DNA from: Alphaproteobacteria bacterium
GTDB taxonomy: Bacteria; Pseudomonadota; Alphaproteobacteria; JAJFIK01
Length of the DNA stretch: 64,000 nucleotides
Reading direction: 5' to 3'
Assembly (NCBI GenBank): GCA_028280665.1
Contig: JANQLJ010000133.1
Coordinates: 9,901-73,900 of the forward strand
The position numbers and the translations under genes are program-made. Shown in pieces: positions 32,019-36,856 of the stretch (its first letter is position 1; each line of letters starts with the position of its first letter). The notes under the pieces are model-generated. The model worked only from the letters and a program-made list of their open reading frames with translations, did not search any database and was not told the DNA's origin.

Positions 32019-32429
32019 ATGGTGAAGACAGCAAAACGTAAAGCCGGAAATGAGAGTGGCGCCGCGGCCGTCGAGTTTGCAATGGTGGTCCCGCTACTGC
32101 TTACATTGGTGCTGGGCACCATGGAAGCCGGGATGCTTTTTCAACTCAAAAACTCCATGACGTTTCACACGCGCGCCATCACGCGCGAAGTGGCCCTGGG
32201 GTCGCTTGACGGGAGTAATGCTCCGGCGGAATTGACCTCGCGGCTCGCGGGCTACGCTCAGCTCAATTACAACGTTTCGGTCACCGTGCCGGACCCCAAT
32301 GATCCGAACGACACCGATGTGGTTGTAACGGTCTCGGTCGCACAAACCGACCTTGAAGCCTACGCTATCACTGGCGTGCTTGTGATGGGAGACTATTCGA
32401 CCACGGCAACGATGCGTTCGCTGGAGTAA
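32019..32429 (+). CDS. TadE/TadF-like pseudopilin
   Basis: N-terminal AAAVEFAMVVPLLLTLVLGTMEAG, the TadE-like N-domain. Confidence 0.6.
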   Translation: MVKTAKRKAGNESGAAAVEFAMVVPLLLTLVLGTMEAGMLFQLKNSMTFHTRAITREVALGSLDGSNAPAELTSRLAGYAQLNYNVSVTVPDPNDPNDTDVVVTVSVAQTDLEAYAITGVLVMGDYSTTATMRSLE

Positions 32430-32433
32430 GATC

Positions 32434-33744
32434 ATGACACCGACAAAACCCACTTGTCCGTTCTGGCGTGCGTTTGCTAAGAACGAGGGCGGCTCGGCCA
32501 TACCCCTTGTCGCGTTGACAATCGTGGTCGCCACCGCCATGGCGGCATTCGCGGTTGATTTGAGCTACGTTTACCGGACCCAATCACAGCTTCTGACCGT
32601 TGCCGAAGCCGCCGCGCTTGCCGCCGCAAGCAAGCTACCGGATGAAACTGACGCCCTTGATCTTGCTCTCGAATACGCCGGGCTGAATCTTGAAAGCGCA
32701 CGGTTCACCGGTGCGGTTGAGGCGGCGGATGTGCGGTTCGGCAGTTGGGATCAAAGCACCGCGACCTTTACCGAAGACAGCTCGGGCGAGGCGGTCGAGG
32801 TGACCGCATCGCTCACCGGGCAAAAGGGCAATGCGATTCCGTCATTTTTGGGCGTAGTTCTTGGCCGCGACCAATTCGATGTCTCGACGACCGCCATCGC
32901 CACAACCTCGCCGGGATCGCCCGCCTGCATAACGGCGCTCGATCCCAATGGCTCAAAAGCGCTGTGGCTCGACTCAAATGCCGAGATACAAGTAAACGGC
33001 TGTGAGATCGTCGTGAACTCAAACCACGGACGGGCGCTCTATGCCGAGAGCAACAGCGCGATTCTTGATGCCGAACGCGTGTGCGTTGTCGGCGGCACCT
33101 TTACCAGCGAAAACAGCACGATAAATCCTGCGCCTGAAAATGGCTGCCCTCCTGTAGTCGATCCCTTCGCCCATCTCACGGAACCGCTTTATGGCGGCTG
33201 TGACTACAATAACCTGACCTTCGAGGAGGAAAACACAACGCTGTCCCCGGGTGTTTACTGCGGCGGCCTCAGGATCAGGAGCAATTCGAACGTTACCTTC
33301 AATCCGGGCATCTACATCATCAAAAATGGCAAGCTCGTCATCGAGCAAAACTCGACCGCTTCCGGCGTTGGCGTCGGCTTCTTTCTGACGGGCGGGAGCG
33401 GCCGTCTGGAATTCACCAGCAACGCCATAGTTGACTTCACCGCCCCCTCATCCGGGCCCCTAGAAGGCGTGGTATTTTTTCAAGACAGAAACTATGGCGG
33501 GACACACAAGATAGAAAGTAATAACGTAAGCGACCTGCTCGGCGCCATCTACCTTCCTGAAGGCAACCTTGAACTCAACAGCAACGGTGCAATTTCCCCA
33601 ATGGGAGGGTGTACACGGATCATTGCCCACCGGATCTTGTTTGAACAAAACAGTACGTTGAATCTCGACGCCGACTTTTCACAGTGCCCGGGTGGTGGCT
33701 CCAGCAGTTCCGGCGGCGGCAGCATGGTCCGCTTGCGCAGATAA
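32434..33744 (+). CDS. TadG-like large pseudopilin with N/S/T/G-rich C-terminal (beta-helix-like) domain; putative tip adhesin
   Basis: N-terminal AIPLVALTIVVATAMAAFAVDLSYVYRTQSQL is a TadG N-domain. C-terminal 250 aa has repeated NS/NST motifs, then GGGSSSSGGGS. Confidence 0.6.
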   Translation: MTPTKPTCPFWRAFAKNEGGSAIPLVALTIVVATAMAAFAVDLSYVYRTQSQLLTVAEAAALAAASKLPDETDALDLALEYAGLNLESARFTGAVEAADVRFGSWDQSTATFTEDSSGEAVEVTASLTGQKGNAIPSFLGVVLGRDQFDVSTTAIATTSPGSPACITALDPNGSKALWLDSNAEIQVNGCEIVVNSNHGRALYAESNSAILDAERVCVVGGTFTSENSTINPAPENGCPPVVDPFAHLTEPLYGGCDYNNLTFEEENTTLSPGVYCGGLRIRSNSNVTFNPGIYIIKNGKLVIEQNSTASGVGVGFFLTGGSGRLEFTSNAIVDFTAPSSGPLEGVVFFQDRNYGGTHKIESNNVSDLLGAIYLPEGNLELNSNGAISPMGGCTRIIAHRILFEQNSTLNLDADFSQCPGGGSSSSGGGSMVRLRR

Positions 33745-34455: not shown

Positions 34456-35013
34456 TCAATTGCCGAGGGCACTGCCGAACGGCTCGTTCCGGAAAGCCGT
34501 GCTGGCCGAAAGAAGCCGTTGCGTCCCACCATTCATGTTCGCCATCACAAATCCCACGCCCGGCGTAAACACGTTCCAGCTATAGAATGTGCGAACCAGG
34601 ACAATATCGCCGCCGCCGCCGGCGTCGAAAGCCGGGTCGATGGTAAACTCACCGTCTTCGTTGATGGGATTTGCGAACGCAACCGAGCCGAACTCGTCGA
34701 ACGTTTGCACTTCGACCGTCAATGAATCGCAATCGAGCATCATGTCGATGCGGTCGCAAAGCTCGTCCTTGAACTGGGCACCGGTCATCGCGGCTTGCTG
34801 TGCCTGGCCCGTGCGAATAAGGCGCGAAGTCTCAAGCAAACCGTTTTCAAGTGTAACAGAGGCAAAGAAAATCATTGTCGATTCAACAACCGCAAAGATC
34901 AGTGCAAAGAACGGTCCCACAATCATCGCGAACTCAATCGCGGTTGATCCGGACGTGTTTTTGCGGAACCGGTCAAACAATCTCTTCAAAGAAAGGCGCA
35001 ACATAACGCTCAA
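34456..35013 (-). CDS. TadE/TadF-like pseudopilin
   Basis: GSTAIEFAMIVGPFFALIFAVVESTM N-domain; 4-nt overlap with the downstream pseudopilin gene. Confidence 0.6.
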   Translation of the reverse strand: MSVMLRLSLKRLFDRFRKNTSGSTAIEFAMIVGPFFALIFAVVESTMIFFASVTLENGLLETSRLIRTGQAQQAAMTGAQFKDELCDRIDMMLDCDSLTVEVQTFDEFGSVAFANPINEDGEFTIDPAFDAGGGGDIVLVRTFYSWNVFTPGVGFVMANMNGGTQRLLSASTAFRNEPFGSALGN

Positions 35014-35125
35014 CCCTTTTTGCGGTCTTTACCGCAGCAGATTGCACCTGGCGGCGTAAAGACTTCGCAAAGAGACTTGGTAAACTTGTTAACTAGTCCC
35101 GGCGTTTTGAGAATTTAGTTCAAAT

Positions 35126-36856
35126 TTGAATCGTCGCCCTAATCCGGCGTTAAACCCCTCCGGTACAAAATGTAGTCGGTGCGCAATGGGGGTAACGTGT
35201 CTGAGAGAGGGCGCTGTGTACAAGTTTTTTGCAGGAATGCTGGATGGGCTGAAACGCTTCTGGAAAGCCACCGGAGGCAACACCGCGATGATCTTTGGGT
35301 TATCGCTCATCCCCCTTGTTGTTTCGACAGGCGCGGCGATCGATGCCTCGCGCGCCTTGATCGTGCGGGCGCGCCTTGCCGAAGCGCTCGATGCCGCGGG
35401 ACTGGCCGTGGGCGGCGCGACGGAACTAAGCGAAGAAGATATGGAACAACTCGCGCAGGACTTCTTCGACGCCAATTACCCAGAAGATGCTCTGGGTGTT
35501 GTGGGAACGCTTAACTTCTCGATCACGAACGAAGTCATTACCATGAGCGCGACGGCCAACGTGCCGACCAGCATTTTGCAGATCGTCCACATCGATAGCG
35601 TCGATGTGGGCGTGAGTAATCAGATCACGCGCGAATCCACGGGCCTTGAAGTGGCACTGGTGCTCGACAATACGGGGTCCATGGCGTCCAACAATAAAAT
35701 CGGTGCCCTGCGCACGGCGGCAACGGACCTCATTAACATTCTGTTTGGAGATGACCCGAACCCGCCCCAGGTGCGCGGATCCCTGGTGCCCTTTGTCACG
35801 GGCGTCAATATCATGGCGGACAGCAGTTTCGACATGAGTTGGATCGATGTCGATGCGGAAGCCGAGCACCATGGCGAGAATTTCGACCTGGAAGCCGGCC
35901 AGCGCGTCAGCCATCTGGATCTCTTCGACCGCATCGGCAATGCGCAATGGCGGGGCTGTGTGGAGATGCGCGCGGCGCCTTACGACGTGCTCGATACGCC
36001 CCCCAGCGCGGGCAATCCCGACACCTTGTTCGTACCTTACTTCTGGCCCGACGAGCCCGACAACAATTGGCGCTACAATAACGACTATCTGAACGACAAC
36101 ATCAGCTCCGGCGGTGGCGGGGACGACGATGACGACGATGATGATGACGATGAAGATGGTGGCGGCGGCGGCGGCGGCGGCGGCGGCGGCGGTGGTGGTG
36201 GCGGTGGCGGCAGCCTCTCCGACGCAGAAATCCAGAGAAACCTCGACAAATATGACGGCAGCAACGCGGACATTGATGAAGTGCCGCAATATACCCGCGG
36301 CCCGAACATGAGTTGCCCGGACCCGTTGGTCCCCCTGACCAATGACCGCGATCATCTGCTTGCCGAGATCGGTAACATGGAGCCCTGGCAATATTCAGGG
36401 ACCAATATCGCCCATGGCCTTTCCTGGGGCTGGCGCGTGCTTTCGCCCGGCGAGCCGTTTACCGAAGGCGCCGCCTATAACGACCCCACGACACAGAAAG
36501 CGCTTATTCTGCTGACGGACGGCGTGAACACGCTTTGCTGTCAGAGCTCTTCGCATAACCGGTCGGACTATGGCGGCTACGGTTATGTGGCCATGAACCG
36601 GCTCGGCACCACGAGCCCCTGGGTGGGCCCGCAAGTGGTGAATGACCGGGTGGCGGAGCTGTGCGAAAACGTCAAGGCGGAAGGTATTCGGCTCTACACC
36701 ATTACCTTCCAGGTGAACAATTCGACCCTTTCGGACCTGTTCCGCAATTGCGCCACCTCGCCTGACCTCTACTTCAACTCGCCGTCGAACGCGGACCTGC
36801 AGAACGTCTTCGTCACGATCGGCCGCGATCTGTCGAACCTGCGCCTGAGCCAATAA
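35126..36856 (+). CDS. TadG-like pseudopilin with von Willebrand factor A domain; putative tip adhesin
   Basis: TadE/G-like N-segment GGNTAMIFGLSLIPLVVSTGAAIDASR. vWA MIDAS-like LVLDNTGSM and LTDGVNT. Internal D12-G18 low-complexity linker. Start ambiguous (35126, 35186 or 35240). Confidence 0.7.
   Translation: MNRRPNPALNPSGTKCSRCAMGVTCLREGAVYKFFAGMLDGLKRFWKATGGNTAMIFGLSLIPLVVSTGAAIDASRALIVRARLAEALDAAGLAVGGATELSEEDMEQLAQDFFDANYPEDALGVVGTLNFSITNEVITMSATANVPTSILQIVHIDSVDVGVSNQITRESTGLEVALVLDNTGSMASNNKIGALRTAATDLINILFGDDPNPPQVRGSLVPFVTGVNIMADSSFDMSWIDVDAEAEHHGENFDLEAGQRVSHLDLFDRIGNAQWRGCVEMRAAPYDVLDTPPSAGNPDTLFVPYFWPDEPDNNWRYNNDYLNDNISSGGGGDDDDDDDDDDEDGGGGGGGGGGGGGGGGGGSLSDAEIQRNLDKYDGSNADIDEVPQYTRGPNMSCPDPLVPLTNDRDHLLAEIGNMEPWQYSGTNIAHGLSWGWRVLSPGEPFTEGAAYNDPTTQKALILLTDGVNTLCCQSSSHNRSDYGGYGYVAMNRLGTTSPWVGPQVVNDRVAELCENVKAEGIRLYTITFQVNNSTLSDLFRNCATSPDLYFNSPSNADLQNVFVTIGRDLSNLRLSQ
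36110..36211 (+). repeat. in-frame trinucleotide tract (GAY)12 followed by (GGY)18 including perfect (GGC)10 at 36161-36190, encoding GGGG-DDDDDDDDDDED-G18
   Basis: Read directly: ggcggtggcggg gacgacgatgacgacgatgatgatgacgatgaagat ggtggcggcggcggcggcggcggcggcggcggcggtggtggtggcggtggcggc. Confidence 0.85.

Follow-up and report, generated by a model that had tools for sequence, protein, structure and literature searches.

Candidate alternative tips at one alphaproteobacterial Tad locus: a resident vWA-type minor pilin trio and a TadE-TadG' pair with a beta-solenoid head

Can a single Tad pilus machine be served by more than one kind of tip? Many bacteria use Tad pili to attach, to sense surfaces and to form biofilms and, to our knowledge, TadG/CpaL proteins were recognized as apical tip subunits only in 2025-2026, with interchangeable tips shown only in Myxococcus. 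The question is raised by a stretch of 64,000 nucleotides (the window) from the alphaproteobacterial contig JANQLJ010000133.1. There the open reading frame (ORF) listing and a Pfam profile search place five Tad-type genes within 32019-36856, each above the Pfam gathering score for TadE or Tad, and a complete Caulobacter-type flp-cpaABCDEF-tadBC locus adjoins them downstream. That five genes here have a TadE/G N-domain had been claimed in an original prediction made from the sequence alone, and its gene content and domain assignments hold. Its interpretation as an expanded five-part module does not; instead there is a standard trio, two TadE genes and a TadG gene with a vWA domain (TadE2, TadE3 and TadG-vWA), with a separately inserted TadE1-TadG' pair beside it. 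The reading favored here, at a probability of roughly 0.6, is that TadG-vWA and TadG' nucleate two alternative tips on one Tad machine.

The resident trio and the inserted pair

The resident trio is an ordinary set of the CpaJ/K/L type, with TadE2, TadE3 and TadG-vWA as counterparts of CpaJ, CpaK and CpaL of Caulobacter crescentus (TadE, TadF and TadG in Aggregatibacter), and there is nothing out of the ordinary in the vWA protein or the overall locus, the vWA set being already known biology. Unlike CpaJ/K/L, the window trio is arranged divergently; of 80 genome loci that a TadG profile retrieved, more have this divergent arrangement of two TadE genes and TadG-vWA than any other. The minus-strand TadE2 and TadE3 are convergent with TadE1 and TadG' and divergent from TadG-vWA, so the earlier description of two genes as convergent to all the others was right for the first two genes and wrong for the vWA gene.

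The distinctness of the pair is seen by comparison with a metagenomic contig (L004), the closest syntenic relative, that is collinear with the window over 26378-46863 at 70-78% DNA identity. It has two TadE genes divergent from TadG-vWA while TadE1 and TadG' are absent, and collinearity is broken only at window positions ~31723-33912, where ~2.2 kb with TadE1 and TadG' correspond to 300 bp in the relative. Full-length similarity of TadE1 (32-37%) is found only with TadE genes immediately upstream of TadG' homologues (L001 and L090), and the pair therefore appears, on these sequence relationships, to be a co-inherited and co-evolving unit separately inserted beside the standard trio. Independent assembly of a sequencing run yielded an identical copy of the cassette, and TadE1 is called as 136 amino acids (aa) on an independent contig. 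The TadE-TadG' pairs of L001 and L090 are those most similar to the window cassette, and rve/DDE transposase or integrase genes are present a few kb from them (L001, 11538-12236 and 20474-21190; L090, 5934-6839); these nearby transposases hint at joint mobility of the two genes.

For 35126-36856, the longest form of the TadG-vWA ORF, Pfam gives matches to Tad (PF13400; 24.3 bits, cut-off 22.3) and VWA_2 (27.6 bits, cut-off 27). The vWA/MIDAS-like domain noticed earlier in this large ORF is thereby confirmed, and also by the fold: the AlphaFold2 (AF2) model, with a predicted local distance difference test (pLDDT) value of 81, has a helix at residues 12-60, a pilin sheet at 90-131 and a vWA fold that bears a MIDAS (metal ion-dependent adhesion site; DxS/TxS ... 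T ... D) and is interrupted by an insert rich in loops. Both the fold and the MIDAS site agree with those of CpaL. Homologues number more than 1684, with a best identity of 75%, and the 28 that were aligned all share the MIDAS residues (DxTxS, TD) and, at the C-terminus, the motif LSNLRL. L532, L535 and R536 are invariant as well, in the segment of a candidate C-terminal donor strand whose pairing partner is not readable from the DSSP string. Compared with CpaL, the insert is shorter and loop-rich in place of two beta-barrels, and it has a unique poly-Asp/poly-Gly tract (D10-E-D-G18) whose length slippage could vary. The tract is not present in L004, and the inserts that other homologues have at that place are different and G/R/W-rich; residues 292-324 have pLDDT below 50 and form a disordered loop. 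A protein search returned no identical TadG-vWA although the neighboring TadG' was returned (P0001).

The beta-solenoid head of TadG' and its family

TadG' scores 36.8 bits against Pfam Tad (cut-off 22.3) and 28.8 against Tad_C (cut-off 22.1). The expectation that the 436-aa protein would be beta-helix-like is borne out by its AF2 model, built with 34 sequences, which is a beta-solenoid protein with a pLDDT of 90. A leader and hydrophobic alpha-1 helix occupy residues 1-65 (22-65 being helical in the model) and are followed by a pilin beta-sheet at ~100-160, the solenoid at ~161-420, a low-confidence Gly/Ser linker at ~421-430 and a terminal strand, MVRLRR. The GGGSSSSGGGS that had been taken for the end of the protein corresponds to the low-confidence linker, at 421-428, and the conserved strand comes after it. 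L434 is at least 90% conserved, and MVRLRR is a candidate donor strand that, going by the model, may complete the pilin sheet, with the partner sheet not readable from the model output. Within the solenoid an S/Q-N motif returns at intervals of 20-25 residues. Of the eight cysteines of the solenoid (165, 190, 217, 238, 256, 276, 393 and 418), four (C165, C190, C256 and C276) do not vary among 51 TadG' homologues, and the family is marked by both a conserved Cys pattern and the beta-solenoid fold. Apart from Cys, the residues invariant in the family are for the most part Gly, Pro and Tyr; Asp occurs once, in a DP motif. The head is extracytoplasmic in character and acidic, with a net charge of -15 (family median -5).

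The best fold matches of TadG' are the DUF3494 ice-binding proteins and ComZ, the tip pilin of the Thermus competence pilus, and tapirins are also among the top matches. A sequence profile search of the PDB returned nothing for the TadG' family at E <=1 except a weak tapirin match, and nothing useful for the TadG-vWA family. As the score of TadG' itself against Pfam DUF7305 (PF23981) is 18 bits, below the cut-off of 27, its relationship to that family is established by chaining through homologues, 22 of 51 of which match DUF7305 at E <=0.01; the Tad N-domain is present in all 51. The score against Beta_helix (PF13229), 19.5 bits, is also below cut-off (25.9).

The likeness to Thermus thermophilus ComZ-PilA2 (PDB 6qvi; PMC6561018) is one of design, a pilin module with an inserted beta-solenoid. 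ComZ is a GspK-like pilin with such an insert, its nearest fold also being an ice-binding protein, its partner is the neighboring pilin PilA2, and on steric grounds ComZ seems to fit only at the tip (PMC6561018). In contrast to TadG', ComZ belongs to a type IVa pilus rather than a Tad system, sequence similarity between the two is not detectable, and ComZ binds DNA through lysines where the TadG' head is acidic; ComZ-like DNA binding was set aside for TadG' on the basis of that net charge and of the negative family median. With DUF3494/IBP-1 ice-binding proteins (e.g. Colwellia 3wp9) the likeness is of fold only, at 11% identity, and TadG' has neither a Pfam match nor a PDB sequence match that would make it a member of DUF3494. 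In FfIBP a helix is packed on one face of the solenoid while the solenoid of the TadG' model has no helix, and TadG' differs further from the ice-binding proteins in having a pilin anchor and eight cysteines. Ice binding was also set aside, the match being to the fold only and the family being widespread in Alphaproteobacteria and Acidobacteria (public genomes and metagenomes).

The family is large. A word-indexed search with TadG' gave 66 matches, and a full phmmer scan, with the solenoid domain as query, yielded 6573 cluster representatives, 4161 of them at E <=1e-10 and nearly all 400-460 aa long with the solenoid domain C-terminal. Entries are labelled 'TadG' or hypothetical in their sources, and in the literature no paper was found on the family, none mentioning DUF7305 and none linking TadG with a beta-helix or solenoid. 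A scan of GTDB species genomes with the single TadG' protein returned no relative. Genomic contexts were accordingly taken from metagenomic contigs. In one of these (L003) a tad locus has TadG' as its only TadG, and in two TadG' is a satellite with two TadE genes (L088 and L089); it is accompanied by Flp and TadE in L086 and by TadE in L001, L002 and L090, and is an orphan in L087. Among the 80 TadG-vWA loci TadG' is found within 10 kb in one, from a Maricaulis metagenome-assembled genome (MAG; L049), where one TadE pair is situated between TadG' and TadG-vWA.

Expansion as such is different. Two or three tandem TadG-vWA paralogues are present in many alphaproteobacterial loci (L024, L028, L033, L015, L027, L034, L035 and L038-L040, including Maricaulis, Hyphobacterium and MAGs); L028 has three TadG and two TadE genes, and one locus holds five Tad-domain genes. 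Since related loci carry 2-3 TadG paralogues, expansion of the Tad module is not unusual in itself, and the unusual part of the window locus is the combination of vWA and beta-solenoid. Multiple apical pilins per locus appear to be widespread and unstudied.

One machine and two candidate tips

In the proposed model one Caulobacter-type Tad machine would be served by two sets of minor (tip or priming) pilins. In the resident set, the counterpart of CpaJ/CpaK/CpaL, TadG-vWA as apical pilin would display a metal-dependent (MIDAS) vWA head for adhesion or force sensing. In the inserted set TadE1 would be the dedicated small partner pilin of TadG', itself a similar apical pilin module with a disulfide-rich beta-solenoid head inserted between the pilin sheet and the C-terminal strand. 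The head on the same Flp fiber would then be either the vWA one or a beta-solenoid of different binding specificity, the ligand of the latter perhaps being a polysaccharide.

TadG/CpaL is placed in a single apical, PilK-like slot of the tip initiation complex, with its extreme C-terminal strand coming after the large insertion to complete the pilin sheet, an arrangement also known from the Thermus competence pilin (PMC13533445). TadG' and TadG-vWA have in common a pilin module composed of Tad, a Tad_C-like region and a conserved C-terminal segment that is a candidate donor strand, and a hidden Markov model (HMM) of the TadG' N-terminal region matches TadG-vWA at 4e-14. Because they are thus paralogous in the module of one apical slot, and because elsewhere TadG' can be the sole large minor pilin (L003, L088 and L089), they would be alternative apical subunits and the tips they nucleate alternative tips. 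The precedent is in Myxococcus xanthus with KilL/KilM/KilN, where four alternative TadEFG-like tips are served by one machine (PMC12075869). The window locus is alike in having more than one TadEFG-like set on one machine, if both its sets serve it, in the variable distal domain supplied by a large TadG-like member, and in the disulfides predicted. It differs in that Myxococcus has four complete trimers dispersed in the genome whereas the window has one trimer and an adjacent two-gene set, and the KilN head has another fold (helices and a beta-scaffold, with no PDB match) and functions in prey killing.

The best-placed rival, though an unlikely one and less likely than two alternative tips, is that all five proteins form one composite tip that shows the vWA and beta-solenoid heads together. 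All five genes do adjoin one Tad machine, and the cassette supplies just one small pilin; the Maricaulis MAG locus, too, has one TadE pair for two large pilins. In Streptococcus sanguinis a type IV pilus tip is reported to carry two modular pilins, PilB (vWA) and PilC (lectin domain), though that PilA/PilB/PilC system is a Gram-positive type IVa pilus in which the two modular pilins have different positions in the one tip. In the window, both large proteins have the same pilin module and a conserved, candidate terminal strand, and for that module the literature has the single apical position (PMC13533445). Loci with TadG' and no vWA TadG (L003, L088 and L089), and a close relative (L004) with a complete locus and no cassette, also speak against the composite.

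A more doubtful proposal is that the TadE1-TadG' cassette has no connection with this machine and is a silent or decaying acquisition, or serves another type IV filament system in the genome. Homologous cassettes are indeed often far from tad machinery and near transposases (L001 and L090), or orphan (L087), and no promoter was recognized upstream of the one in the window. Yet both its ORFs are intact with all invariant family residues present, in TadE1 a canonical site for the adjacent CpaA (G/AAAVEF) is preserved, an identical copy was independently assembled, and its position is exactly among the minor-pilin genes of the sole tad locus in the window. It is just as improbable that the TadG' solenoid is no adhesin and is an enzyme comparable to phage tailspikes (a glycan lyase or depolymerase) or an inner-membrane-anchored periplasmic assembly factor, as the top fold matches (ice-binding proteins, ComZ and tapirins) are all non-enzymatic binding scaffolds, the invariant TadG' columns include no conserved acidic/basic catalytic cluster and Pfam Beta_helix is below cut-off.

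Several considerations count against two alternative tips. Mutual exclusivity of the two large pilins is drawn by analogy, and the S. sanguinis tip is a case of two modular pilins together on one tip. The inserted set has one small pilin, which implies either a dimer or a borrowing of TadE2/TadE3 that would blur the distinction between two separate sets. Neither TadG' (G/SAIPL) nor TadG-vWA (G/NTAMIF) has the Glu5 of classic prepilin motifs, and so their processing and incorporation into the fiber are only putative. As to origin, the cassette's GC content at third codon positions (GC3, 0.66-0.67) lies little under the mean of the locus and neither clearly marks it as foreign nor establishes a recent horizontal gain; loss from the L004 lineage is as possible as an insertion in the window.

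TadG-type apical minor pilins and multiple tips are already known; what is new is the TadE1-TadG' cassette with its beta-solenoid head. The locus is a compact natural case in which the canonical vWA tip set of one machine is joined by an inserted cassette whose head differs in structure, and it points to a very large uncharacterized class of beta-solenoid TadG proteins. If the heads are alternative, tip identity would set the binding specificity of the Tad pilus. A further and tentative suggestion, for which the odds seem somewhat short of even, is that TadE1-TadG' may be a self-contained, transferable 'tip-swap' cassette with a ComZ-like apical pilin that gives a resident machine a second, non-vWA head. 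The thousands of unstudied 'TadG' proteins of this type could then be a second major class of Tad tip receptor (binding polysaccharide, perhaps nucleic acid, or some other surface ligand), converged on the design of the Thermus competence tip.

Gene boundaries, machine and neighboring genes

Profile searches match Tad-type N-domains in all five proteins, and the large C-terminal domains do not match unrelated cytoplasmic enzymes. For Pfam TadE (PF07811; cut-off 22.9) the scores are 46.7 bits for TadE1, 35.5 for the ORF at 33920-34459 (-) containing TadE2, and 33.3 for TadE3. No NCBIfam model was found for any of the five minor-pilin proteins, and HMMs built for this analysis found no further Tad-type pilin gene in the window besides that for the Flp pilin. 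The prepilin motif G/XXXXEF, read from the translations, is present in TadE1, TadE2 and TadE3, and the locus has a CpaA peptidase that matches Peptidase_A24 at 4e-14 (Pfam). TadE2 and TadE3 are respectively 79% and 73% identical to their homologues in L004, and the machine genes are collinear with those of L004 at 75% DNA identity. A gene for a TPR protein is also present in the locus downstream of the minor pilins. The features are collected in Table 1.

Table 1. Features of the minor-pilin region and Tad machine, in window coordinates
Feature	Position	Strand	Description	Support
TadE1	32019..32429	+	136-aa TadE-type minor pilin, first cassette gene; prepilin motif G/AAAVEF	Pfam TadE 3.5e-12
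TadG'	32434..33744	+	436-aa TadG-like putative apical minor pilin, second cassette gene	
Beta-solenoid head of TadG'	32914..33693	+	residues 161-420	strands tile 164-412 (model)
C-terminal strand of TadG'	33724..33741	+	conserved MVRLRR	DSSP strand 431-434 after linker
TadE2	33920..34438	-	172-aa TadE/TadF-type minor pilin, resident trio; motif G/IAAVEF	Pfam TadE 1.1e-8 and weak TadF match
TadE3	34456..35013	-	182-185-aa TadE-type minor pilin, resident trio; motif G/STAIEF	Pfam TadE 5.2e-8
Intergenic region TadE3 / TadG-vWA	35014..35215	.	divergent, 50% GC	divergent arrangement kept in most of 80 related loci
TadG-vWA	35216..36856	+	546-aa CpaL-type putative apical minor pilin (pilin module, split vWA with MIDAS, loop-rich insert, C-terminus DLSNLRLSQ)	
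Low-complexity loop	36122..36211	+	D10-E-D-G18 in TadG-vWA insert; (GAC/GAT)~12 then (GGC)17	TRF
Flp major pilin	37882..38058	+	58 aa, motif G/ATAIEY	Pfam Flp_Fap 1.9e-21
Tad machine	38212..46633	+	CpaA prepilin peptidase, CpaB, CpaC secretin, CpaD, CpaE/TadZ, CpaF ATPase, TadB, TadC	Pfam and NCBIfam

Several starts differ from those of the longest ORFs. The TadG-vWA ORF is extendable to a TTG at 35126, and judging from the N-termini of homologues its start is most likely the GTG at 35216, so that 546 aa is likelier than the 576 first given. TadE2 is extendable to a TTG at 34459. Its most likely start is the ATG 21 nt downstream, at 34438, since this is preceded by a GAGG ribosome-binding site and the 172 aa it predicts agree with an independent gene call (172 aa) and a homologue (173 aa). 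TadE2 and TadE3 are then 17 nt apart, and the 4-nt coupling earlier described for this minus-strand pair, which depends on the TTG start, is doubtful. The TadE1 ORF is extendable upstream to a GTG at 31983. The region between TadE3 and TadG-vWA is presumed to hold the promoters of both; a scan of it for the sigma-70 consensus gave no site, and promoter and terminator scans were uninformative, with fewer sites than in shuffled sequences.

Between TadG-vWA and flp, at 37026-37511 (-), there is a gene for a 161-aa secreted protein made up of a T2SS-T3SS_pil_N domain, which the CpaC secretin also has at its N-terminus. Such pil_N proteins are encoded at the same position in L004 (159 aa) and inside the L003 tad locus (156 aa), and one of 78 aa is encoded ~5 kb from the TadE-TadG' pair of L001. 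Directly upstream of the minor-pilin genes, at 29080-31785 (-), is a gene for a 901-aa coiled-coil protein with weak SMC, FlgK-helical and Baculo_PEP_C matches, all below the family cut-offs. Its homologues are found at the same position in L004 (983 aa) and L091, and a link to the Tad locus is possible. In the 4588-5436 region of L004 a GNAT acetyltransferase gene is located between that for an FMN-dependent dehydrogenase and the coiled-coil gene, and it is missing from the window in the corresponding stretch at 28978-29081. Within the machine, the longest CpaD ORF runs 65 nt into the end of cpaC (41068-41132), and as the Pfam match begins at residue 39 the true CpaD start is probably further downstream.

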